Source of the DNA: Chloroflexota bacterium
Lineage (GTDB): Bacteria; Chloroflexota; Anaerolineae; Anaerolineales; Villigracilaceae
NCBI GenBank assembly: GCA_040006635.1
Contig: JBDTWO010000001.1
Span: 25,998 to 89,997 of the forward strand
Length of the DNA: 64,000 nucleotides
Direction: 5' to 3'
A program made the translations under genes and the position numbers. The notes beneath the pieces were generated by a model, which saw only the letters and a list, made by a program, of their open reading frames with translations, was not told the origin of the DNA and did not search any database. This document shows, piece after piece, positions 3,798-45,939 of this stretch; position 1 is the first letter of the stretch; each line of letters opens with the position of its first letter.

Positions 3798-6320
3798 ATG
3801 AAAGTCTTCCTCAGCTCCACATACATTGATTTAGTTGAACATCGCAAAGCCGCGCACGAGGCATTGGAACGGCTCGGACAAGAAGTTGGGCGCATGGAAA
3901 TCTTTGGTGCACGCGATGGCGAAGCAACAACTATCGCACTTGACCAACTTGAAAAGAGCGACCTTATCGTTGGGATTTACGCCTATCGTTACGGATTTAT
4001 CCCTGAAGGTGCGGACATTTCCATCACGGAGCAGGAGTACGTTCATGCCAAAAGCAAAGGCAAATCTGTTTTATGTTTTGTTGTAAACGAAGACCACCCT
4101 TGGTCTCCTAAAATGATGGAAAAGGATGCGGGGAAAATCAAAAAGTTGGAAGATTTCAAAGCAAAGATCTTGAAAGAGAAAGTTGTCGACTTTTTTACTA
4201 CTCCTGCCGACTTGGCAATGAAAATCGCTACCTCAGTTCATAATTATCTTGAAGAACACAAACCACTTGTTGATCCTCAACCAGCAATCACCAATCACCT
4301 ATTACCCAAGCCCACAGGTTCCACACTCCCTCACCAGGAATTTTTCTTCGGTCGCGCGGACGAACTCAAAACCATCGCCGCTGCTCTTTCACCAGATACG
4401 CGTGCATGGGGCGCACTCATTGACGGACCTGGCGGCATCGGAAAAACCGCGCTCGCCATCAAAGCCGCGCACGATGCACCTAAAGAACTATTCGAGCGCA
4501 AAATTTTCATCACCGCCAAAGTACGCGAACTGACCGCCGAAGGCGAAGCCAAACTGACCGACTTCACCCGCCCGACCTACCTCGCCATGCTGGACGAACT
4601 GGGCAAGGAATTGGGCACAGACGGACTCGAAAAACTCGCGCCCGATGAGCGTCCCAACGAACTGCGCCTCGCGCTGGCGGGCAAGAAGGCGCTGATCATC
4701 TTCGACAATTTGGAAACCCTGCCCGAAGAAGAACGGACGCGCCTGTTCCAATTCATCTCGCGCCTGCCCGAAGGCAACAAAGCCATCGTCACCTCCCGCC
4801 GACGGGCAGACGTGGACGCGCGCATCGTGCGCCTCGACCGCCTCGCCCGTGACGAAGCCCTGCAACTCATCGCCGAACTTGCTACAAAATATCCGCGCCT
4901 TGCCCGCGCTTCCCAAAAAGAGCGCGAAGACCTGTACGAGATCACGCAGGGCAACCCTCTCTTCATCCGCTGGATTGCGGGGCAGTTGGGGCGCGCAGGC
5001 TCACAATGCCGCACCATCGCCGAAGCCTGCGTCTTCATTGACAAAGCCCCCAAAGGCAACGAACCGCTCGAATACATCTTCGGCGACCTGCTGGAGACCT
5101 TCACCGCCGACGAGACGAAAGTCCTCGCCGCACTGACGTATTTCAGCCTGCCCGCCAAACTCAAGTGGATCGCAGATATGACGACCCTGCCCGAACGCGC
5201 CGCCGAAACCGCGCTCGAAGATTTAACAGATCGCTCGATCCTAATATCGAATATCGAATCTCGAACTTTCTTTTTACCCCCGCTGACAGCGAAATTCATC
5301 CGCACCCGCCGTCCCGAAGCCGTGTCCCAAACAGGCGACGCCCTCACCGACCGCGCCTACGCCCTCGCCATGCAATACGGTGGAAACGACAATTACGAAG
5401 GCTTCCGCACACTGGACGTTGAATGGGATTTCGTCTCCGCTGCCCTGCCGCGCTTACTGATTGGCGACAACGACCGCCTGCAAACGGTGTGCTATCAACT
5501 CTTTCGCTTTCTTTATTTTTCGGGCAGATGGGATGATTTGATATGGCTCAATGAACAAGCTGAAACGCGAGCACTTGCCATCAACGCTAAAGAGCAGGCT
5601 GGCTGGCGGGCAATTCAAGTGGGATGGGCTTTTTTCCTTCGCGACCAACCTGCCGAAGTTCTGGCTTGCGCGGCGCGCGCTACCGAACACTTGCAAGACA
5701 GTTCGCCGCATAACAAAGCAAGTGCCATCCAAATGCGTGGACATGGTCACCTAATAGACGGAGACAATGCTGCCGCCATTGCAGCATATCGCGAAGCATT
5801 GGAAATACACCGTTCTATCTCACCTGAAAGTGACAATGTCGCAATTGTTCTAAACTGGCTAGCTAATGCAGAAAGCAACCACGGAGATTATGATGACGCC
5901 GAGCGCGACTACCGCGAAGCCCTGCGCATTGCGAAGATCATCAAAAACGATGAGAGCACTGCCATTTATACAGGCAACTTGGCAGGACTTGCCCTCGACC
6001 GCGAACAATGGGCAGAAGCCGAGTCCCTTGCCCGCGAAGCCCTCACACTGGCAGAAAAAGTTGGGCGCCAAGAAGAATTTGCTACAGAGAGTCACCGCCT
6101 CGCCAAAGCCCTGCTCGAGCAAAGTAGGTCACGCTTCCAGCGTGACGAACCGCCCGATGAAGAAGAAAAGTCACGTCAAAGACGTGACCTACAGGAAGCC
6201 ACCCTGAGCGAAGCCGAAGGGCTGTCCCGCCGCGCCGTCGAGATTTACACGCGCCTGCGTCATTCCAGTTTGCAGTCAGCGCAGAAAATGCTGGAGGAGA
6301 TCGAGAAAGCAATGAAATAA
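3798..6320 (+). CDS. NLR-like protein: DUF4062 (TIR-like) + STAND/NB-ARC NTPase + wHTH + TPR
   Basis: KVFLSSTYxDL, RYG and TEQEY (DUF4062); Walker A GPGGIGKT, Walker B LIIFDNLE, IVTSR, GNPL; C-terminal TPR-like repeats. Start placed at ATG 3798 after an AGAGG RBS. Confidence 0.85.
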   Translation: MKVFLSSTYIDLVEHRKAAHEALERLGQEVGRMEIFGARDGEATTIALDQLEKSDLIVGIYAYRYGFIPEGADISITEQEYVHAKSKGKSVLCFVVNEDHPWSPKMMEKDAGKIKKLEDFKAKILKEKVVDFFTTPADLAMKIATSVHNYLEEHKPLVDPQPAITNHLLPKPTGSTLPHQEFFFGRADELKTIAAALSPDTRAWGALIDGPGGIGKTALAIKAAHDAPKELFERKIFITAKVRELTAEGEAKLTDFTRPTYLAMLDELGKELGTDGLEKLAPDERPNELRLALAGKKALIIFDNLETLPEEERTRLFQFISRLPEGNKAIVTSRRRADVDARIVRLDRLARDEALQLIAELATKYPRLARASQKEREDLYEITQGNPLFIRWIAGQLGRAGSQCRTIAEACVFIDKAPKGNEPLEYIFGDLLETFTADETKVLAALTYFSLPAKLKWIADMTTLPERAAETALEDLTDRSILISNIESRTFFLPPLTAKFIRTRRPEAVSQTGDALTDRAYALAMQYGGNDNYEGFRTLDVEWDFVSAALPRLLIGDNDRLQTVCYQLFRFLYFSGRWDDLIWLNEQAETRALAINAKEQAGWRAIQVGWAFFLRDQPAEVLACAARATEHLQDSSPHNKASAIQMRGHGHLIDGDNAAAIAAYREALEIHRSISPESDNVAIVLNWLANAESNHGDYDDAERDYREALRIAKIIKNDESTAIYTGNLAGLALDREQWAEAESLAREALTLAEKVGRQEEFATESHRLAKALLEQSRSRFQRDEPPDEEEKSRQRRDLQEATLSEAEGLSRRAVEIYTRLRHSSLQSAQKMLEEIEKAMK
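6124..6221. repeat. Two REP-like elements inside the NLR reading frame
   Basis: 69-bp element GTAGGTCACGC...GACGTGACCTAC (6124-6192) and CCCTGAGCGAAGCCGAAGGG (6202-6221). Confidence 0.75.
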
Positions 6321-31011: not shown

Positions 31012-32472
31012 ATGCAACTACATAACCTCACCATCCGCGAAGCACACCAATTACTAATTACCAAACAAATCTCCTCCGTCGAACTGACTCAGGCGATGCT
31101 CGACCGCATCCACGATATAGACTCCAAGGTCAAATCCTACGTCACCGTCACGGACGAGCTCGCGCTTGAACAAGCCAGGCAAGCCGATGAGCGTCTCGCC
31201 AAAGGCGACAACGTCACACCGCTGACAGGTATCCCCTTCTCGATGAAGGACTGCATCTCCACGCGTGATGTCCGCACGACATGCTCCTCGAAGATTCTTG
31301 AAAACTATGTTCCGCAATACAACGCCACCGTCACGAACAAACTCGCGGACGCAGGCGCTGTCCTCGTTGGCAAGACCAACATGGACGAGTTCGGTATGGG
31401 TTCATCGTGCGAAAACTCAGCATTCTTCAATACACATAATCCATGGAATCTCGACCATGTCCCCGGTGGTTCGAGCGGTGGTGCGGCGGCGAGCATGTCT
31501 GCCAGTCTCGCGACCTTTGCCATCGGCGAAGACACAGGCGGGTCAGTCCGCATGCCCGCGGGATTTTGTAACGTCACAGGCATCAAGCCCACGTACGGAC
31601 GTGTCTCACGCTATGGTCTGATCGCGCTCGCCTCATCCTTCGATTGCATCGGACCTCTTACCCACGACGCCTATGATTGCGCAACTGTCCTCCAAGCCAT
31701 CGCAGGTCATGATCCTCACGATAGCACCACTTACAAATTACCAGTTCCCAATTACATCGCAAACATTGACAAGCCCGTCAAAGGCATGAAGCTCGGCATT
31801 CCCAAAGAATATTTCGTCGCAGGCATGGAAGCGGGCGTCGAGTCCGCCATGCAAGAAGCCATTCGTCAATTTGAAAAACTCGGCATGGAGATTCACGAGG
31901 TCTCACTCCCCCACACCAAATACGGTCTGCCCGTTTATTATCTACTGCTCTTTGCCGAAGCCAGCGCCAACCTCTCCCGCATGGACGGCACGCGCTTCGG
32001 TCTCTCCGTTTCGGATGGCGCGAAAGATGTCATCGACATCTACCTCCAAACCCGCCACGAGGGATTCGGTGACGAAGTCAAACGCAGGATTATGCTTGGA
32101 GCATACGCGTTATCCGCTGGATATTACGACGCGTATTACTTGAAGGCTCAAAAAGTGCGCACGCTTCTGCGCCGGGACTTTGAGTCTGCCTTTGCCTACG
32201 TAGACGTTCTCCTCGCCCCGACCTGTCCCACCACCGCCTTCAAACTCGGCGAAAAGACCAGCGACCCGCTCGAAATGTATCTCTCCGATATTTACGTGGT
32301 TGCGACCAACCCTGCGGGTGTCCCTGCATTAGCGCTCCCCGCTGGCTTCTCCAAAGATATGCCTGTCGGCATGCAACTCATCGGCAAACACTTGGACGAA
32401 CAAACATTATTCCAAGTCGCTCATGCCTATCAGCAAGTCACTGACTGGCATAAGCAGTTGCCAAATCTTTAG
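31012..32472 (+). CDS. gatA: Asp/Glu-tRNA amidotransferase subunit A
   Basis: KTNMDEFGMGSS, GGSSGG, DTGGSVRMPA, KRRIMLG. Confidence 0.97.
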   Translation: MQLHNLTIREAHQLLITKQISSVELTQAMLDRIHDIDSKVKSYVTVTDELALEQARQADERLAKGDNVTPLTGIPFSMKDCISTRDVRTTCSSKILENYVPQYNATVTNKLADAGAVLVGKTNMDEFGMGSSCENSAFFNTHNPWNLDHVPGGSSGGAAASMSASLATFAIGEDTGGSVRMPAGFCNVTGIKPTYGRVSRYGLIALASSFDCIGPLTHDAYDCATVLQAIAGHDPHDSTTYKLPVPNYIANIDKPVKGMKLGIPKEYFVAGMEAGVESAMQEAIRQFEKLGMEIHEVSLPHTKYGLPVYYLLLFAEASANLSRMDGTRFGLSVSDGAKDVIDIYLQTRHEGFGDEVKRRIMLGAYALSAGYYDAYYLKAQKVRTLLRRDFESAFAYVDVLLAPTCPTTAFKLGEKTSDPLEMYLSDIYVVATNPAGVPALALPAGFSKDMPVGMQLIGKHLDEQTLFQVAHAYQQVTDWHKQLPNL

Positions 32473-32483
32473 GAATAACAAGT

Positions 32484-33041
32484 ATGCTATCCATCGAAAA
32501 ATGTGCCGTTCCTCCACAAGCGCTTCTGTCGAAATATTCTCTCGATGGCATGTATGCGGATTCGTTCCGCACCGAAATTATAGGTCAGGTTCCCCTCGCT
32601 GTATTTGTATTTGCGTTTTACACAACCTGGCTTTTCAAAATCGAGCAATTCATTTTGGCTCACATCGCGCAACGACCATCCAATGATATTCAAGCCAGGG
32701 AATTGGCAGACGGCGCGATAAACAAGTTCGCCGCATGGAATGTCGAAAGCCGCAACGACAACCAACTCCTGATGTGTGACATGCTCGGACGCACACGTTC
32801 CTGGTTTATGGTCAATCATATGGCCACAGAAAATAACAAGAAAACGCATTTGTATTTTGGGTCGGCAGTCGTTCCAAAGAAAAAGCCAAAAACTGGAAAA
32901 TCTTCGCTTGGGATTGTATTCCTAATATTATTAGGCTTTCACAAAATCTACTCGTTCCTGCTTCTGTATCTTGCAAGGCAAAAAGTCGCCCGCGCTTATC
33001 AACAAGTGACAGATTTGCATAAGCAATTACCGCCTCTTTAA
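32484..33041 (+). CDS. Hypothetical protein (DUF2867-like) whose last about 19 aa derive from a duplicated gatA 3' end
   Basis: C-terminus KVARAYQQVTDLHKQLPPL versus GatA QVAHAYQQVTDWHKQLPNL. Confidence 0.75.
   Translation: MLSIEKCAVPPQALLSKYSLDGMYADSFRTEIIGQVPLAVFVFAFYTTWLFKIEQFILAHIAQRPSNDIQARELADGAINKFAAWNVESRNDNQLLMCDMLGRTRSWFMVNHMATENNKKTHLYFGSAVVPKKKPKTGKSSLGIVFLILLGFHKIYSFLLLYLARQKVARAYQQVTDLHKQLPPL
32983..33041 (+). repeat. Direct repeat of the gatA 3' 59 bp (original 32414-32472)
   Basis: Colinear, same length, both begin AAGTCGC and end at the stop codon. Confidence 0.85.
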
Positions 33042-33083
33042 ATCTGTTTATCCGTTTTGCGAAGCAATCCGCTCGCCTACGGA
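33041..33083. repeat. ATCCGT-type short repeat element (related copy at 62180-62226)
   Basis: AATCTGTTTATCCGTTTTGCGAAGCAATCCG versus AATCCGTTTATCCGTTATGCGAAGCCATCCG. Confidence 0.65.
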
Positions 33084-33568
33084 TTATCATAAACGTAGAA
33101 AATATAATCCTGAGATTTTGTCTCGACACCCAGATCATGTAATACTCTGAGAAGCTGAGCGCGATGATCAGTGGCATGATTGGCAACATGCAGAAGCACT
33201 TGCCACGCAATAAGATCTTTATCTTCATCAGGTTCTGTTATCGGTTTGGAAAACAACATATCGTCACGTAAGTCGTCGGCAAGGTACGCGCGGATCTTTT
33301 GCTCAACATCATCCCAATATGTGCGGATGGGATCTCGGTCATCAGTGTCGACGGCAGGCAACGGTTCCATTGGTCTGAAAGCACGCAGTTCGCTGAACCA
33401 CATTTGTTCCGCGTCAATGAGATGAACGATTTGGTCTCGAACAGACCCGTGAGAGTAATCCACAGCTTGAGTGAACTGCTCAAAGGATAGCGTAGCGACA
33501 TGCTTCCACACTACGCGGTTTTCGGCAAAGTGATAGTTGTAAAAATGACGGAAGGCATCTGCATTCAT
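33077..33568 (-). CDS. DinB/YfiT-family metalloprotein
   Basis: SVRDQIVHL, HVANHATDHRAQ His motifs. Confidence 0.9.
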   Translation of the reverse strand: MNADAFRHFYNYHFAENRVVWKHVATLSFEQFTQAVDYSHGSVRDQIVHLIDAEQMWFSELRAFRPMEPLPAVDTDDRDPIRTYWDDVEQKIRAYLADDLRDDMLFSKPITEPDEDKDLIAWQVLLHVANHATDHRAQLLRVLHDLGVETKSQDYIFYVYDNP

Positions 33569-33637
33569 ATGAATTACTCCTTTGGATGTGGTTAAATGAA
33601 TTATAGCGCAAGTGTTCTAAAAAACAGAGATTTGATT

Positions 33638-34114
33638 ATGTACAACCATGCTCCTGAAAATTATATCTGTCCCTTTTGCCTTCTTATTGGAGGTATAAAA
33701 AATAAGCATGTTCATTCAGTACAAAGCGATATTGTTTACCACGACAACTCCGTCACCGCTTTTATCGGTTCGCAACAATGGAAGAACAATCACGGAAACA
33801 CGATCATCGTTCCAAATGAACACTTTGAAAATATCTATGACCTACCGGTAAAATATTCTCAAGATATTCATCGAGTTGCGAAGCTATTGGCGTTGACAAT
33901 GAAAGCAGTCTACGCGTGCGATGGAGTTTCAACTCGTCAACATAATGAACCTGGAGGCAGTCAGGATGTCTGGCATTATCATTTACATGTCACCCCACGA
34001 TACAAAGACGACAATTATTACGCCACGCAACGAGAACCCATGTCGATAAGCGAACGAGCAATGCATGCAGAAAAAATCAGAAATCATCTTTCAACCATTC
34101 AACTACGAGACTAA
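33638..34114 (+). CDS. HIT-family protein
   Basis: CPFC, QDVWHYHLHVTPR HIT motif. Confidence 0.92.
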   Translation: MYNHAPENYICPFCLLIGGIKNKHVHSVQSDIVYHDNSVTAFIGSQQWKNNHGNTIIVPNEHFENIYDLPVKYSQDIHRVAKLLALTMKAVYACDGVSTRQHNEPGGSQDVWHYHLHVTPRYKDDNYYATQREPMSISERAMHAEKIRNHLSTIQLRD

Positions 34115-34120
34115 CCAACT

Positions 34121-35569
34121 ATGACCCAATACGAACCAGTGATCGGACTTGAAATTCACGGCGAACTGCTCACCAACTCCAAAATGTTCTGCAGTTGTTC
34201 TGCCGACTATGGCTCCGCACCTGAACCGAACACGAACATCTGCCCCACGTGCACAGGTCTGCCTGGCGCGATGCCCGTTGTCAACAAAAAGGCGACCGAG
34301 CTCGCCGCGCTCGTCGGGCTCGCGTTGAACTGTTCCATTAACAAGCACAATACTTTCGCGCGCAAAAATTATTATTATCCTGATCTGCCGAAGGGTTATC
34401 AGATCTCGCAGTATGAGTTGCCGATTGCAGAAAAAGGCTGGATGGACGTATTGGCTGATTCCGAGGATCAACTTCGGGTGAGAGTGAGGCGGGTTCACAT
34501 CGAAGAAGATACTGCCAAACTATCCCACGAAAAAAATTATGCGCTCGTCGATTTCAATCGCGCAGGCGTCCCGTTGCTTGAGATCGTCTCCGAGCCAGAC
34601 ATCCGCACCGTTGAAGCCGCGCTCGATTACGCCACGAAGATCCGCGCCATCTTGCGTTATCTCGGCGTCAACTCGGGCGACATGGAAAAAGGCGTCCTGC
34701 GTTTCGAAGCGAACATTTCCGTGCGCCCCGTCGGCAGTGACGAGTTCCGCACGCGCACCGAAATAAAAAACCTCAACAGTTTCCGCGCGCTCACGCGTGC
34801 CTCGGCATATGAGATCGAACGCCAGATCAAAGTGTACGAAGCCGGCGGAACCGTGGCGCAGGAAACGCTCGGCTGGGACGATGTGCGCGGCGTGACCGTC
34901 TCACAGCGCGGCAAGGAAGAGGCGCACGACTACCGCTACTTCCCCGAACCCGACCTGCCCCCGCTCCAACTTTCGGATGCGTGGATCGATTCGATTCGGA
35001 CTCAACTGCCCGAACTGCCCGAAGCCAAGACAGCACGCTTCATCACAGACTTCAGCCTGACTCCGTCCGAAGCGCGTTTTCTTACATCCGAACTTTCGCT
35101 TGCGGACTACTTCGAGAGCGTCGTCGCCAAATCGAAGAGCCCTGCCAAGACTATCCACTCTTGGATCGCAGGCGAGTTCATGCGCAACCTCAACGACCTG
35201 AGCATTGATATCGCAAACATCTCCGTTGACCCCAGCGACCTCGCCCAACTCATTGACATGACAACCGATAAGGTCATCAACAACAACGCGGGCAAAACTG
35301 TGCTGGCAGAGATGTTCAAAAACGGCGGTAAACCCGAGCAGATCGTCAAAGAGAAAAATCTGGCGCAGGTCTCTGATGAAGGTTTTATCAAGCAAGCGAT
35401 TGAAAAAGCTTTGAACGACAATCCCAAAGAACTGGAACAATATTTCGCTGGCAAAGAGACTCTCCTGCAATGGTTCATGGGGCAAGTCGCCCGCGCCACC
35501 AAAGGCAAAGCCGATCCGAATGTGACGAAGGAGTTGCTGGTCAAGGCGTTGGAAGAGAGAAGAAAGTGA
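34121..35569 (+). CDS. gatB: Asp/Glu-tRNA amidotransferase subunit B
   Basis: IGLEIH, RKNYYYPDLPKGYQISQY, NRAGVPLLEIV, YRYFPEPDLP, FMGQVARAT.GKADP. Confidence 0.97.
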   Translation: MTQYEPVIGLEIHGELLTNSKMFCSCSADYGSAPEPNTNICPTCTGLPGAMPVVNKKATELAALVGLALNCSINKHNTFARKNYYYPDLPKGYQISQYELPIAEKGWMDVLADSEDQLRVRVRRVHIEEDTAKLSHEKNYALVDFNRAGVPLLEIVSEPDIRTVEAALDYATKIRAILRYLGVNSGDMEKGVLRFEANISVRPVGSDEFRTRTEIKNLNSFRALTRASAYEIERQIKVYEAGGTVAQETLGWDDVRGVTVSQRGKEEAHDYRYFPEPDLPPLQLSDAWIDSIRTQLPELPEAKTARFITDFSLTPSEARFLTSELSLADYFESVVAKSKSPAKTIHSWIAGEFMRNLNDLSIDIANISVDPSDLAQLIDMTTDKVINNNAGKTVLAEMFKNGGKPEQIVKEKNLAQVSDEGFIKQAIEKALNDNPKELEQYFAGKETLLQWFMGQVARATKGKADPNVTKELLVKALEERRK

Positions 35570-35580
35570 CGCTCGATCAT

Positions 35581-35686
35581 GTCATGCTGAATACTATGAC
35601 CCTGTCAAGGCATTTTTTAGAGATGCAGACGCAGCGCAGCATCTCTACGATTATCTCAGAGACCCTTCGCTACCGCTCAGGGTGAC
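35581..35686. repeat. Composite REP element
   Basis: GTCATGCTGA ... GACCCTTCGCTACCGCTCAGGGTGAC enclosing a TAGAGATGC / GCATCTCTA hairpin. Confidence 0.7.
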
Positions 35687-35696
35687 TGCGAAAATA

Positions 35697-35816
35697 GTTC
35701 ATGGGACAAGTCGCCCGCGCTACCAAAGCCTGTCCTGAGCGTGTCGAAGGGGCAAAGCCGACCCGAATGTGACGAAGGAGCTGCTGGTCAAGGCGTTGAA
35801 AGCAAGAAGCAATTGA
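35697..35816 (+). pseudogene. Second copy of the gatB 3' end, interrupted by a ~23-bp REP
   Basis: Aligns to 35474-35569; insert CCTGTCCTGAGCGTGTCGAAGG before GGCAAAG. Confidence 0.9.
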
Positions 35817-35920
35817 CCCTTATTCGCGAATTGTTTTGGGGAAAGTAAAAGCCTGGATAGTATGTTAGTATCACCATCTACTCAACGATGAAATTGTGTT
35901 TGTAACCTGGGAGAAAAACA

Positions 35921-37729
35921 ATGCCACGTATTAATCTTCTATTTGTTCTAATCATGTTCTTGTCTGCGTGTAGCGCCAAATCTACTCCTTCGCCTGCAGA
36001 GCCACCTTCTACAGAGGCTCCAACCGCTCCACCATCTGCTACTGCAGAGGATGCAATAGTAATTTCTATGGAACCCGCAGGATATAAACCTATTTCCGAA
36101 TCAACTCAACAGGGGATTAGGGAATTCTTTACCCCGTTATCAGTTGATGATGTCAAGCAGCTTAATCTAGAGGATCAAGTAATTCCAGATAGTCTTGCGG
36201 CGAGAGATGCAGAGATAACTAAAGAAATGCTTAGCAAGAAAGATAAAGTAGCCCAAATATGTGGAGTCCCAGTAAAATATTTGGGTGTTGTGTGGAAAGC
36301 ACATGTTTCGACAGATCCTGCAACGGGAAACAAGCAATATCGCTGGACAAGAGTGTATGAAGCGGTAATCCCAGAGGGCGAAGAGATACCTTCAGGTGTC
36401 TATACATGTTGGACTCGAGATACTGAGACTGGTACCCTAAATACGTATCCAACAGTCTGGGATGCCAATGGTAAGTTGGAAGTAAATGATGGTAATTGTT
36501 TTGAAAGATTGGAAGGTGAGATGAAGTGGTCAGGCACAACTCCAGTGATCTATAATTCTAAGACGAAAAAGTTTGCTATCCCTGGAGGAGGTACTAACGA
36601 TGATTTCCTTAATGAATCTTCATGGATGTCATTAGAGAATAGATCAGTTAGCGAATCTGTCAACCCAATAGCAAACCCATTCTCTGCAGAGATCATGGCA
36701 AAAATAAGTGAAAGTGGGTATACCTATAGGGCAGATGGAAGTTTGGTAAATGCTTCGGGTAATGTGGCAGTTTCAAACGTAAATGGTAAGTGGTTTGATG
36801 GGGGTGGTGCAGAGTTTGACTTTCAAACTTTTAGAATAATTGAGACAGATGGAGTTGATTATCAGAATCGACCGCTTGTTGTATTGTCCTTTACCGTAAA
36901 TGGAGAGGAGAGAGTATCTCTACCTAGTGGAGAGTCTGCTGTGCCGATAGATTTGTCTGCAAGTAGGGCAATGGTTGATGAAAATGCCATGACAAATCCG
37001 ACTGCCTGGGAGTGGGGAACATTTGAAAATATCACATTTGATAGAATTCCGGTTGTTACTCAAGAATCTGTAGATTCTGGAATGTTGGATTTAACTAGAG
37101 CAATGATTTTAAGGCCATGGACTGATGAGATTCGACCAGCCGTCTGGAAGTATGTACCGATAAATTCTGAAGCAGGAATCTGGACTTTAACCCACTATAG
37201 AGATAGCGGCTTCGAGTTGGGGAATTATTCAGGGGGTCCCCAATATCCAGGTGAAGATCCAATTGTGTGGCAGAATGAAGCAATTGTTCCTTCTGACGTT
37301 GTTAAATATATTGATGAAAGTACGGGGAAATGGGTGATTAATAGTGGAATTCAGTATTATTATAATAAAGCTACGGGTGAAAGTTTGATTTTTAAATTTG
37401 AGTACACAGATGAGAGGGCTGATCCAAATAGTTCTGATTTTCGTCAGACTATAATGGGTTTGGGTAATCCGTCATGGGTCGTAGTTCTTCCTCGGATAAC
37501 TCAAAATGAAGCAATCTCTCCAGAGTTGCGAGCTAAGATAGAAAAGTATCAAGGTAAAACACAAGTGGGAAGTGATGTAACTGGAGTAGTCTTGGCCGGT
37601 GATGAACTAGCTCAATATCAAGAGTTTACATTTGTTCCATTAAATTATCTTCAACGTTCAATGGAGGGTTATTTAACAGACCCTGATGATCCTGAATTTG
37701 ACTCAAAGTATCCACCACTTAATCCTTAA
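35921..37729 (+). CDS. AT-rich hypothetical lipoprotein
   Basis: Lipobox LSAC and P/T linker; 602-aa open frame with codon usage unlike the host genes. Confidence 0.8.
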   Translation: MPRINLLFVLIMFLSACSAKSTPSPAEPPSTEAPTAPPSATAEDAIVISMEPAGYKPISESTQQGIREFFTPLSVDDVKQLNLEDQVIPDSLAARDAEITKEMLSKKDKVAQICGVPVKYLGVVWKAHVSTDPATGNKQYRWTRVYEAVIPEGEEIPSGVYTCWTRDTETGTLNTYPTVWDANGKLEVNDGNCFERLEGEMKWSGTTPVIYNSKTKKFAIPGGGTNDDFLNESSWMSLENRSVSESVNPIANPFSAEIMAKISESGYTYRADGSLVNASGNVAVSNVNGKWFDGGGAEFDFQTFRIIETDGVDYQNRPLVVLSFTVNGEERVSLPSGESAVPIDLSASRAMVDENAMTNPTAWEWGTFENITFDRIPVVTQESVDSGMLDLTRAMILRPWTDEIRPAVWKYVPINSEAGIWTLTHYRDSGFELGNYSGGPQYPGEDPIVWQNEAIVPSDVVKYIDESTGKWVINSGIQYYYNKATGESLIFKFEYTDERADPNSSDFRQTIMGLGNPSWVVVLPRITQNEAISPELRAKIEKYQGKTQVGSDVTGVVLAGDELAQYQEFTFVPLNYLQRSMEGYLTDPDDPEFDSKYPPLNP

Positions 37730-37786
37730 GATATCAAATTTTTGCTGGTCCTTGCATAGGTAGTTGATGACTGCTAGAGTTAGATT

Positions 37787-38248
37787 ATGAAAAGAGTTGT
37801 TTATTTGAATATTTTGACTTTTGTTGTGTCTACACTGTTGCTATTTGTTGCTTTTTATATTTCACCAACTGTCACAAAAGCGCAAGTCTGTAATACATCA
37901 AACTGTAACTGTAATCTTTGCAAACTTCCTTCTGGTAGTCCTGCTCCTTGTACGGCTGATTGTGAGAGTGTCTATAGTTCAGCAGCACAAGGCTTTGTAG
38001 ATCAATGTTTTACGACATGTAATGCAGCGTCAAATGTAACACAATGTCCAGATACCAGTTGGACAACTTGGGGGCCATGTGGAGGTGGTTATCAAGAGAG
38101 GTATTGTATGACCCCTAGCGAAGTTAATGATATACAAATCCAATTGTGTGAACCAACTGGACCCAGTGGTACTCCTACACCAGCCCTACTCCTCCACCAG
38201 GTTGTGTTGCAACTGCTCCAACAGCGGTAGCGCTGAGTTCACCAGCTA
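37787..38248 (+). pseudogene. Secreted Cys-rich protein, frameshifted and truncated at the gatB-tail junction
   Basis: Signal peptide, many Cys, WTTWGPC (TSP1-like). An alternative frame continues PTPPPGCVATAPTAVALSSPANGA and runs into gatB copy 3. Confidence 0.6.
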
Positions 38249-38364
38249 ATGGGGCGAGTCGCCCGTACTGCCAAAGGCTGTTCTGAGCGTGTCGAAGGGG
38301 CAAAGCTGACCCGAACGTGACGAAAGAGTTGCTAGTGAAGACATTGGAAGAGCGAAGGAAGTAA
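38249..38364 (+). pseudogene. Third copy of the gatB 3' end with the same REP at the same position
   Basis: ATGGGGCGAGTCGCCCG...CCAAAG[GCTGTTCTGAGCGTGTCGAAGG]GGCAAAGCTGACCCGAACGTGACGAAAGAG...TAA. Confidence 0.88.
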
Positions 38365-38386: not shown

Positions 38387-38420
38387 AAAAAAGAGTCTCA
38401 AGCCGAGACTCTTTTTGTTT
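38387..38420. terminator. Intrinsic terminator after the last gatB tail
   Basis: AAAAAGAGTCTC / GAGACTCTTTTT. Confidence 0.8.
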
Positions 38421-38471: not shown

Positions 38472-39320
38472 ATGACATCCCTCACCGAACGCCGCAAGGC
38501 GATCCTCTTTCTTGTACTCGCCGCCATGCTCTGGAGCACCGCTGGGGTTTTCGTCAAGGCGCTCAACTGGGGACCCGTGTCCATTCTGGCGGGTCGTGGA
38601 CTGTTCACGAGCATCTTGTTCCTGCTCTACATGCGCCGCCTCCCCACCAAGATCACACGCTGGACGTTGCTCGCGGCAGGTGGTTCGATCGTGACCCAAT
38701 TCTTATTTGTGGTTTCTACCAAATTAACCACCGCCGCCAATTCCATCTTTCTGCAATATACTGCGCCCATTTATGTGGTTCTGCTCGCGTACTGGCTCCT
38801 CCGCGAAAAGCCTTCCCGTAATGACTTTATTGCGATGGGAATCATCTTTCTGGGAATGATTCTGTTCTTCGGCGATAAATTAAGCACCGATGGTCTCTAC
38901 GGGAATATTCTCGCTGTGCTCAGCGGCGTAACCTCCGCAGTGATGATGGTTGCCTTCCGCGCCCAAAAGGACGGCTCACCGGAGGATAGCATCCTTATTG
39001 CCAGTGTGGTTATGGCGATCTTCGGCATTCCATCCATTATGAAAGAATCCTGGACGGTCACGAACTGGTCGATCATTGCCTACCTCGGCGTCTTTCAGAT
39101 CGGGTTGGCGTTTATCTTGTTCACCAAGAGCATCAAACACATCCCTGCCTTGGAAGCAAATCTGATCGGCACACTGGAGCCGGTCTTCAATCCCGTGTGG
39201 GTGTATCTGTTTCTTGGCGAAAGCATGGGCAAGTCCGCTTTGCTGGGCGGGCTGGTAGTATTGACGGGAGTTATTGTCAGTACGGTTGGTTCGACTCACG
39301 CAAATCGGGAAACGCAATAA
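38472..39320 (+). CDS. EamA/DMT-family transporter
   Basis: About 10 TM helices with two EamA repeats (LQYTAP, LEPVFNP). Confidence 0.92.
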   Translation: MTSLTERRKAILFLVLAAMLWSTAGVFVKALNWGPVSILAGRGLFTSILFLLYMRRLPTKITRWTLLAAGGSIVTQFLFVVSTKLTTAANSIFLQYTAPIYVVLLAYWLLREKPSRNDFIAMGIIFLGMILFFGDKLSTDGLYGNILAVLSGVTSAVMMVAFRAQKDGSPEDSILIASVVMAIFGIPSIMKESWTVTNWSIIAYLGVFQIGLAFILFTKSIKHIPALEANLIGTLEPVFNPVWVYLFLGESMGKSALLGGLVVLTGVIVSTVGSTHANRETQ

Positions 39321-44455: not shown

Positions 44456-44722
44456 TCATCACCACAGAATAGAAATCAACTCCATACCCTCTCCCACTGG
44501 GAGAGGGACAAACCGTCCCGCCGATCAATCGTATCAATCAGGGTGAGGGCGGTATAATCTCCCTCAACCATGCAACCCAACTTTTCATCACCACAGAAAA
44601 GGATTCAACTCCATATCCTCTCCCACTGGGAGAGGGACAAACCGACACGCCGATCAATCGTCACAACCAGGGTGAGGTCATGACCGCTCGCATCGAAAAG
44701 ACCGTTTTCATTAGTTACCGCC
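44456..44722 (+). repeat. Leader repeat copies B (44456-44548, partial) and C (44549-44722, complete)
   Basis: Direct repeats containing CCCTCTCCCACTGGGAGAGGG...GGGTGAGG; copy C leads into the intact TIR gene. Confidence 0.9.
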
Positions 44723-45939
44723 GTGCAAATTTACCATGGGCATTGGCAATTTATCAAAACCTGAAGAGCGAAGGCTATGATGTATTCTTCGATTATCTCA
44801 GCATTCCTAGTGGTGATTTTGAAAACATCATAGTCGAAAATATAAAAGGTCGCACTCACTTTGTAGTGATATTAACTCCTTCAGCTTTGGAAAGATGTAA
44901 TGAGCCTGAAGATTGGCTAAGACGTGAAATAGAAACTGCAATGGATGAAAAACGTAACATTGTGCCACTTATGTTGGAAAGCTTTGATTTTGGCAGTCCA
45001 TCTACCATCAAAGCGCTCACTGGCAGACTTGAGAAATTAAAAAAATACAACGGTCTGCGTTTGCACTCAGAATATTTCTTTGAGGGTATGGATAGGCTTC
45101 GTAAACAATATCTGAATATCTCATTAGATACTATCATTCATCCCATTTCAGAAGAAGCAAGACCCATCACAGAAGAACATCAAGTTGCAGCTGACGAAGT
45201 CAACCCCATTGAAAAAACAGAGCTTACTGCACAAGAATGGTATGAACGTGGATATGTATTTCAGGATGAAAAGAATTATGACGAAGCCCTGCGTTGTTTA
45301 ACAAACGCCATCAATCTTAATGGTGACTTTGCGAGGGCATATTTTCTACGAGGGTCGGTAAAAGGTATACAAGGTGATTACGAGGGAGCACTTTCAGATG
45401 TGAACAACGCTGTACGCATCGAGCCACAATTTCTCGAGGCTTACGGAGTTCGAGCTGTAGCGAGAGAAAATACAGGCGATTTAGATGGAGCAATTACTGA
45501 TTACACTAAGGTCACTCGGGATAAGACACTAGATAAAGATCTTGCCGCAGATACTTTTCACCGTCGTGGACTTGTGCGACTTGATAAAGGCGATCTAATT
45601 AAAGCTAACAAGGACTTTGATAAAGCTATACAACTAAAACCAGACTCTGCTGAATATTTTTTTAGCCGCGGGGTTGCTCACATTATCAACAATAATTTTG
45701 ATAATGCAATGGCAGATGTTGAAACTGCTATTCACCTTGACCCAAATTATATTGACGCATACTTCAACCGAGCTCTGATATGGGAAAAAAAGAAAGCATA
45801 TTCTTCTGCTATTGCCGACTATCAAAAATATCTTAAACTAGGCGGCAATAGACAAAAGGATGAACAAAAAAAGGTAGGACAGAAAATCAAGACCCTTAAA
45901 GGTAAATTGACCAAGAAAAAATCTCTGAAAAAGAAATAA
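44680..45939 (+). CDS. TIR_2 domain + TPR repeat protein
   Basis: VFISYRR, FVVILTP, WLRREI (putative catalytic Glu), about six TPRs. Confidence 0.9.
   Translation: MTARIEKTVFISYRRANLPWALAIYQNLKSEGYDVFFDYLSIPSGDFENIIVENIKGRTHFVVILTPSALERCNEPEDWLRREIETAMDEKRNIVPLMLESFDFGSPSTIKALTGRLEKLKKYNGLRLHSEYFFEGMDRLRKQYLNISLDTIIHPISEEARPITEEHQVAADEVNPIEKTELTAQEWYERGYVFQDEKNYDEALRCLTNAINLNGDFARAYFLRGSVKGIQGDYEGALSDVNNAVRIEPQFLEAYGVRAVARENTGDLDGAITDYTKVTRDKTLDKDLAADTFHRRGLVRLDKGDLIKANKDFDKAIQLKPDSAEYFFSRGVAHIINNNFDNAMADVETAIHLDPNYIDAYFNRALIWEKKKAYSSAIADYQKYLKLGGNRQKDEQKKVGQKIKTLKGKLTKKKSLKKK

Follow-up and report, generated by a model that had tools for sequence, protein, structure and literature searches.

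The gatB gene of an Anaerolineales (Chloroflexota) metagenome-assembled genome (MAG; 290 contigs) is followed by a short cassette array bounded by copies of the gene's own 3′ end. The array lies in a stretch of 64,000 nucleotides, hereafter the window, and consists of one unit made of a miniature inverted-repeat transposable element (MITE) and a second unit made of two open reading frames (ORFs), ORF602 and ORF147. Behind each unit stands a non-functional copy (~95 nt) of the gatB tail, here called a pseudo-tail. Such arrays probably arise through homology-facilitated capture of gene ends that displace the resident ones; recombination between tails would later add and remove cassettes. A preliminary description of the locus, made from the sequence, had offered two origins, an att-like site with gene-end replacement or repeated homology-facilitated capture. 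We favour the second on account of several observations, among them that the tails are xenologous, that displaced tails occur at 24 loci of the genome, that relatives share a pool of cassettes and that one joint cuts into a cargo gene (ORF185).

The last ~95 nt of gatB were found in triplicate at all the positions given in the preliminary description (Table 1), and self-BLAST of the whole genome paired copy 1 with copy 2 (E = 1e-17) and copy 2 with copy 3 (E = 4e-23). The inserts between these direct repeats of about 95–117 nt measure 0.13 and 2.4 kb and contain no mobility genes. Alignment confirmed that copies 2 and 3 carry, at the same position, a 23-nt insert that is missing from the functional tail; the two inserts differ at 2 of 23 bases, each breaks the gatB frame, and their 16-mer core occurs exactly twice in the window. 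Once the insert is removed, copies 2 and 3 are 91% and 83% identical to copy 1, respectively. The 127-nt spacer between copies 1 and 2 is essentially a single MITE, and the ~2.4 kb between copies 2 and 3, correctly described before as AT-rich cargo, hold two genes of 37–44% G+C in a genome of ~50%. The sole strong terminator of the region sits 3′ of copy 3 and not 3′ of the working gatB, and it is the most distal copy that is joined to the native terminator of gatB and to its native neighbour, EamA.

Table 1 Features of the gatA–gatB–EamA region, in window coordinates.
Feature	Position	Strand	Basis or remark
gatA, functional tail ending in YQQVTDWHKQLPNL and stop	31012..32472	+	Position beside gatB; tblastn and tail match to the gatA-position gene of relatives
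Cargo ORF185	32484..33041	+	In-frame fusion to displaced gatA tail, ending in VARAYQQVTDLHKQLPPL and stop
DinB-family gene	33077-33568	-	Pfam; variable cargo
HIT-family gene	33596-34114	+	Pfam; variable cargo
gatB, intact	34121..35569	+	Pfam GatB_N and GatB_Yqey; alignment of tails
Copy 1, functional gatB tail	35474-35569	+	Stop TGA at 35567-35569
MITE, ~107 nt, terminal inverted repeats GTCACCCTGAG...CTCAGnnTGAC	35580..35686	-	Member of genome-wide family
Copy 2, gatB pseudo-tail	35697..35816	+	Frameshifted by 23-nt insert at 35729-35751
Cargo ORF602, predicted lipoprotein, no Pfam family	35921..37729	+	ORF list, Pfam scan
Cargo ORF147, Cys-rich, N-terminal hydrophobic segment, no Pfam match	37787..38230	+	ORF list
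Copy 3, gatB pseudo-tail, displaced native tail	38249..38364	+	23-nt insert at 38277-38299
Intrinsic terminator hairpin, 12 pairs	38388..38416	+	T-rich tail directly 3′
GGTATAAT promoter box, then EamA (38475-39320)	3′ of terminator		Pfam (EamA)

Repeated gatB ends recur in close relatives. DNA search of 82 members of the genus revealed two to four clustered gatB tails in G001, G011, G018, G037, G040, G072, G078, G082 and G083 (four tails), as well as a second tail on a separate contig, beside EamA, in G005; extra tails were also present in Chloroflexi bacterium CFX2 (four copies) and in L033. In total, sets of two to four gatB tails were seen in at least 13 genomes of the genus, to which two metagenome contigs of independent origin can be added. 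When 69 gatB loci with at least 3 kb of downstream sequence were searched against themselves, an extra tail was found in five, all from the genus clade, and in none of ~50 loci from more distant Chloroflexota and other phyla. Empty sites with a single tail also occur within the genus (including G017, G014 and G055). In G017, the one working tail is followed by a terminator and a GCGGTATAATCC box, that is, it occupies the position held by copy 3 in the present genome (G000) and by pseudo-tail c2 in G005. Copy 3, the terminator, the GGTATAAT box and the start of EamA align with the G005 pseudo-tail beside EamA.

Misassembly is an unlikely source of this pattern, because the exact strings common to the copies are too short to mislead an assembler (the longest measure 18, 9 and 24 nt) and the architecture recurs in independent assemblies, among them the near-complete G083 (20 contigs), more than 13 independently assembled genomes, and contigs from ENA and JGI. 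The genome is a MAG in 290 pieces, which would make a tandem fusion of gatB ends from different strain variants conceivable; as the pseudo-tails have their own unique flanks, we give that possibility next to no credence.

The pattern is not confined to gatB. We took the final 120 nt of each of 3,694 long ORFs, compared them with the same strand up to 3 kb downstream and found a copy of the tail behind 64 genes, versus about 27–30 genes when internal or upstream segments were used as controls. Removal of tandem paralogues left 28 tail/pseudo-tail pairs in 24 genes. The pseudo-tails of these pairs have a median length of 91 nt (range 39–219), start at a median distance of 1.1 kb from the stop codon of the gene and are on average 84% identical to the functional tail; in 20 of the 28 pairs similarity stops within 5 nt of the stop codon. 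The host genes are core genes (gatA, gatB, PFK, PurA, RecN, PGM, PEPCK, AdoHcyase and an SDR). The cargo between the tails is lower in G+C than the host genes and rich in toxin–antitoxin (TA) modules, including HepT/MNT, two PIN, Gp49/HTH, MNT and, by Pfam, DUF433/DUF5615. At recN (contig C15, 42257-45978, outside the window), for example, two displaced tails of 55 nt follow the gene, and all 12 differences from the working tail fall at third codon positions; these tails bracket an MNT gene and two ~85%-identical copies of a 218-aa gene with a weak, below-cutoff match to the DUF6036-like nucleotidyltransferase family.

Codon positions suggest where the displaced tails came from. Across the 28 pairs, mismatches between functional and displaced tails are distributed over codon positions 1, 2 and 3 as 103, 63 and 271 (chi-square P = 5e-37). 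The third-position share is therefore 62%, in excess of the limit of about one-half (at most about 50%) that a local duplicate with one neutral copy could reach, which indicates that the displaced tails diverged mostly as working gene ends in different lineages and not as decaying local duplicates. This argues against an in-situ target duplication, in which an insertion process such as widely staggered breaks or replicative repair would copy 40–220 nt of the target when the cargo enters and the copies would then drift, as has been proposed for RM (restriction–modification) systems inserted with a long target duplication. The size range of the pseudo-tails, the dominance of short lengths among them and the lack of mobility genes do match the known class of insertion with long target duplication; the mean identity of ~84%, however, compares with ~95–100% in published cases, and at gatA the functional and displaced tails carry alleles typical of different relatives (LPNL-stop, as in G005, in the working tail; LPPL-stop, as in G018, in the displaced one). 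We therefore consider an origin of the tails by duplication in place unlikely. The host gene itself bears marks of exchange: gatB is a recombination mosaic across the genus, with windows of 97–98% identity beside windows of 58–70%. In pairwise comparisons the switch is sharp, for example from 97–98% to 58–70% around nt 1035–1300, and such breaks point to homologous exchange as a frequent event within the 3′ third of gatB.

The neighbouring gatA locus exposes a joint between cargo and pseudo-tail. Here the displaced tail is 57 nt long (32985-33041) and is fused in frame to ORF185, which reads ARQK directly followed by VARAYQQVTDLHKQLPPL and stop. Since a homologue in G074 runs on to end in ARQKLLRE-stop, the joint cuts into the 3′ end of the cargo gene; about 1–2 nt of possible microhomology are present at it. 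The spacer between gatA and gatB varies across the genus and, by synteny, holds DinB, HIT, ORF185 or nothing, depending on the genome, with a basal arrangement in which gatA adjoins gatB, often followed by aspS. Searching the DNA of the whole genus with the gatA tail proved too insensitive to inform on gatA arrays elsewhere, since even the 57-nt pseudo-tail of the window was missed. The displaced gatA tail (32983-32996) and gatB copy 2 (35708-35721) also have in common the 14-mer AAGTCGCCCGCGCT. All functional gatA tails of the genus read GC(G/T)CA(C/T)GC at this place, and three substitutions in 7 nt create the match to the gatB copy, either by chance or, possibly, by micro-conversion.

We also considered a site-specific system. 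Gene-end replacement, one half of the att-like reading, is borne out at gatB, where the gene stays intact, cargo stands behind its working tail and the former tail now lies beside the native terminator and EamA. An att site for an integrase, by contrast, is unsupported, because no recombinase lies nearby, the edges of the tails vary, the gatB tail copies are only 74–92% identical and the 24 host genes have no motif in common. The absence of a nearby recombinase had been remarked upon before and holds for all ORFs up to 10 kb on either side of the array, among which there is no recombinase or transposase. No hit to PF00589 was obtained on the 101-kb contig of the window (C1) or on the array contigs of 12 array-bearing genomes, although serine recombinases and recombinases of unknown kind were not screened, a point that counts against regarding the arrays as recombinase-free; nor did tblastn against 138 fetched loci, 1.55 Mb in all, give an integrase-like match. 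The gatB pseudo-tails have no common left edge (about 58 to 138 nt, variable even within one cassette type), and comparison of the 24 host tails revealed no common k-mer and none that was enriched.

These findings also bear on integrase-driven accretion in trans, in which the tails would be attL and attR sites and the cassettes integrase-less satellites, such as cis-mobilizable elements (CIMEs) or remnants of cargo-only tycheposons, mobilized by recombinases encoded elsewhere in the genome. Such a process would account for the topology (an intact gene, cargo, a displaced end and tandem stacking) and for cassette–tail junctions that are conserved across genomes, and each of the genomes has 1–15 tyrosine recombinase hits somewhere. 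G072, however, has three gatB tails and a single, weak PF00589 hit. Together with the array contigs and loci that gave no integrase hit, the 24 different host genes, the variable edges and diverged repeats, and the joint that cuts into a cargo ORF, this makes an integrase acting from elsewhere quite improbable.

Three further candidates for a dedicated machinery were rejected. A shared AAGTCGCCCGCGC core does exist as a 13-mer, but with exactly three copies in the genome, and none of the other 22 host-gene loci has it at an edge. An attC-like fold of the tails, as in integrons or in clusters of attC sites lacking integron-integrases (CALINs), was not apparent from DNA folding of both strands (z-scores of -0.7 to +1.2), and no integrase is nearby. 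A diversity-generating retroelement was dismissed on the grounds that neighbouring ORFs include no reverse transcriptase and that the differences between repeats involve all base types and are not A-specific. Rfam gave no match in the region.

The cassettes themselves recur across the genus. The preliminary description had proposed looking in relatives for different cargo between gatB tails, and such cargo was found in the form of cassettes from a shared pool, arranged in differing order. Seven cassette types (distinguished by letters below) recur, each in 2–5 genomes and with 61–94% amino-acid identity; one of them, DUF433/DUF5615 by Pfam, is present in G018, G001, CFX2 and G083, and the metagenome contig L138 (JGI; from a 139-kb contig) holds cassettes E, B and A. 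At the junctions, a pseudo-tail begins 0–25 nt beyond the stop codon that ends the cargo ORF in front of it, and a TAnAAT-like box opens the next cassette just past the stop codon of the tail.

For ORF602, a search of 5.8 billion proteins turned up only two homologues (53% and 45% identity), and the protein was not found in the other 81 genomes of the genus; for ORF147 there was no homologue in the genus. Searching public assemblies for the exact ORF602 and gatB proteins returned no match. The 53% homologue, on ENA contig L135, again forms a cassette behind a gatB pseudo-tail, and the tail–cassette junction is conserved; that contig has three tails, with a GGDEF gene, a UPF0175/DUF3368 pair and the homologue of ORF602 set apart by them. 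Behind this homologue (4336-4522) a MITE remnant and then aspS follow, with no pseudo-tail in between. To judge from this arrangement, cassettes can end an array without a displaced tail.

The distribution of cassettes might be thought a vertical relic, that is, a single array that stood behind gatB in the ancestor of the genus and has since been eroded by deletion, with no continuing capture. Within one subclade the order does fit a single ancestral G-E-A-F array plus losses, and many cassette identities track that of gatB. Between subclades, however, the orders conflict (G078 has G ahead of E and A, G083 has A ahead of B and G018 has B ahead of G), and some cassettes are more similar across clades than gatB is (identities of 85 versus 69 and 83 versus 66). 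ORF602 and ORF147 occur in only 1 of the 82 genomes, the cargo is poorer in G+C than the host genes, and the same pattern is found at 23 other loci of this genome. We consider such a relic very improbable as an explanation of the whole.

The 23-nt insert traces one lineage of pseudo-tails. Related inserts occupy the same site in G083 (31 nt) and in one tail of L138 (46 nt); from these it follows that the insert is an old, eroding remnant that marks a single pseudo-tail lineage. The shared history of copies 2 and 3 after the insertion, as proposed originally, is thereby borne out and extended to further genomes. L138 was the one contig retrieved from metagenomes with a shortened insert pattern; the full pattern retrieved none. 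The insert had been called a REP (repetitive extragenic palindrome), which is roughly right, since it resembles the terminal repeat of a MITE family with ~38 copies in the genome. Members of this family are 75–115 nt long, have terminal inverted repeats of the form GTCACCCTGAGCGnnAGCGAAGGGTC...CTCAGnGTGAC and are mostly flanked by AT. A MITE also directly follows the gatB stop codon in L033 (in the opposite orientation), G005 and G089. The MITE as a cause of the tail duplications was considered and dropped, as the other copies are ordinary intergenic inserts with no gene-tail repeats, judged by eye on the immediate flanks.

Two other features of the window are worth recording. The end of ORF147 (38170-38250) encodes an odd Leu/Gln-rich stretch, and the +1 frame gives instead a Pro/Thr-rich linker (PTPAPTPPPGC...) that runs into copy 3, which suggests that the 3′ end of ORF147 may have been frameshifted or truncated at the joint. 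Finally, 6 kb downstream of the array (44680-45939) lies a gene whose product combines a TIR domain with TPR repeats and which is a candidate for a role in defence or signalling.

On this basis we propose how the arrays may form. A donor fragment from a related lineage, made up of the 3′ part of gatB or of another conserved gene and the sequence downstream of it, would recombine with the resident chromosome. The left crossover would be homologous and lie within the conserved gene; the right join would be either illegitimate, within the resident tail, or homologous, between a pseudo-tail of the donor and the resident tail. This would leave the gene intact but with an imported end, place the cargo behind it and push the resident end downstream. 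With a tail on either side, a cargo unit could be stacked, deleted or moved into other genomes that carry the same gene, by tail-to-tail recombination of the ordinary RecA type. The excess of TA modules could arise because TA cargo would penalize deletion. No dedicated recombinase would be needed, and any conserved gene end could serve, which would explain why the pattern appears at 24 genes.

Several points weigh against this proposal. Recombination is here deduced from sequences, and no event was directly observed. Homologues of ComEC and DprA are present, which is permissive only, and natural competence is unproven in this uncultured lineage; both proteins are widespread and also occur in species that are not known to transform. 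Duplicated gene heads were detected in 12 genes and are rarer than a fully symmetric model suggests. Among the non-paralogous copies, 36 of 41 are shorter than 225 nt, a shortness that random illegitimate joints alone do not predict; it would have to be attributed to rapid deletion between longer repeats, which is an added assumption. One old array with differential loss could lie behind much of the cassette distribution. Last, the tails are too short for reliable phylogeny, and copy 3 is not clearly closer than copy 1 to the positionally orthologous pseudo-tail of G005.

Arrays and displaced gene ends are known from several other systems. In the rhs and cdiA genes, a new C-terminal end and the gene downstream of it are reportedly recombined in while old ends are kept downstream as serial orphan fragments. 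There, a variable toxin domain is swapped together with its immunity gene by way of homology upstream, whereas here the end is conserved, the function of the host gene is unchanged and the cargo is unrelated to it. Chromosomal integrons and CALINs consist of small, often TA-encoding cassettes in the same orientation, separated by repeats of 60–130 nt, and their TA modules are thought to stabilize the arrays. The present arrays resemble them in having small TA-encoding cassettes of the same orientation between repeats, but here each repeat is copied from the end of a coding gene and forms no attC-like hairpin, and no IntI is nearby. An integron-like capture of cassettes at the 3′ ends of housekeeping genes, working without IntI or attC through tuned host recombination or an unrecognized recombinase and building TA and defence arrays at dozens of loci, strikes us as rather improbable.

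Integrative elements also accrete in tandem at the 3′ ends of genes or tRNAs, as CIMEs do at fda in Streptococcus. Tycheposons belong here as well (bioRxiv 10.1101/2020.12.28.424599). With both, the arrays share cargo units, integrase-less ones included, that lie between partial copies of the target 3′ end; CIMEs and tycheposons, however, depend on tyrosine recombinases that are site-specific and on a fixed att core, and here no such enzyme or core was found.

Related in mechanism is homology-facilitated illegitimate recombination in natural transformation (de Vries & Wackernagel 2002; Prudhomme et al. 2002; cited in PMC2884548). It pairs a one-sided homologous anchor, in a conserved gene, with an illegitimate far joint. 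The gatB mosaic and the xenologous tails would be compatible with such an anchor. The ORF185 joint and the variable left edges would be expected from such a pairing. The classical events replace or delete DNA of the recipient and are not known to build arrays of gene tails. Duplications driven by transformation are known (PMC3784515), and the mechanism proposed above fits with them.

Similar in form is insertion with long target duplication (Nobusato et al. 2000; Furuta, Abe & Kobayashi 2010, PMC2853133), which comprises inserts of less than 20 kb that have no mobility genes and lie between direct repeats longer than 30 bp. These repeats often overlap gene 3′ ends and are single-copy in genomes with an empty site, the cargo is of the addiction type (RM systems), the host taxa are mostly transformable, the repeats are ~95–100% identical and the mechanism is unresolved (PMC2853133). 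Small inserts free of mobility genes, repeats of more than 30 bp, addiction-type cargo and empty sites in relatives are all seen here as well. Unlike in that class, the cargo is TA or other genes and not RM, the repeats are ~84% identical with mainly synonymous differences, up to four repeats are stacked, the cassette pool is genus-wide and 24 loci are involved in one genome.

The arrays described here are thus an array-forming, genome-wide extension of a known but poorly understood class of insertions. This lineage offers many replicate events for its study: one genome holds 24 such loci, and more than 13 genomes have a gatB array. The synonymous bias raises the possibility that what has been seen as duplication may be an imported orthologous gene end displacing the resident one. 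If this is true, conserved gene ends would be general, recombinase-free landing pads for accessory genes, and cassette arrays could grow without integrons. A pseudo-tail behind a short, low-G+C insert would then also serve as an annotation signature for islets in uncultured Chloroflexota.

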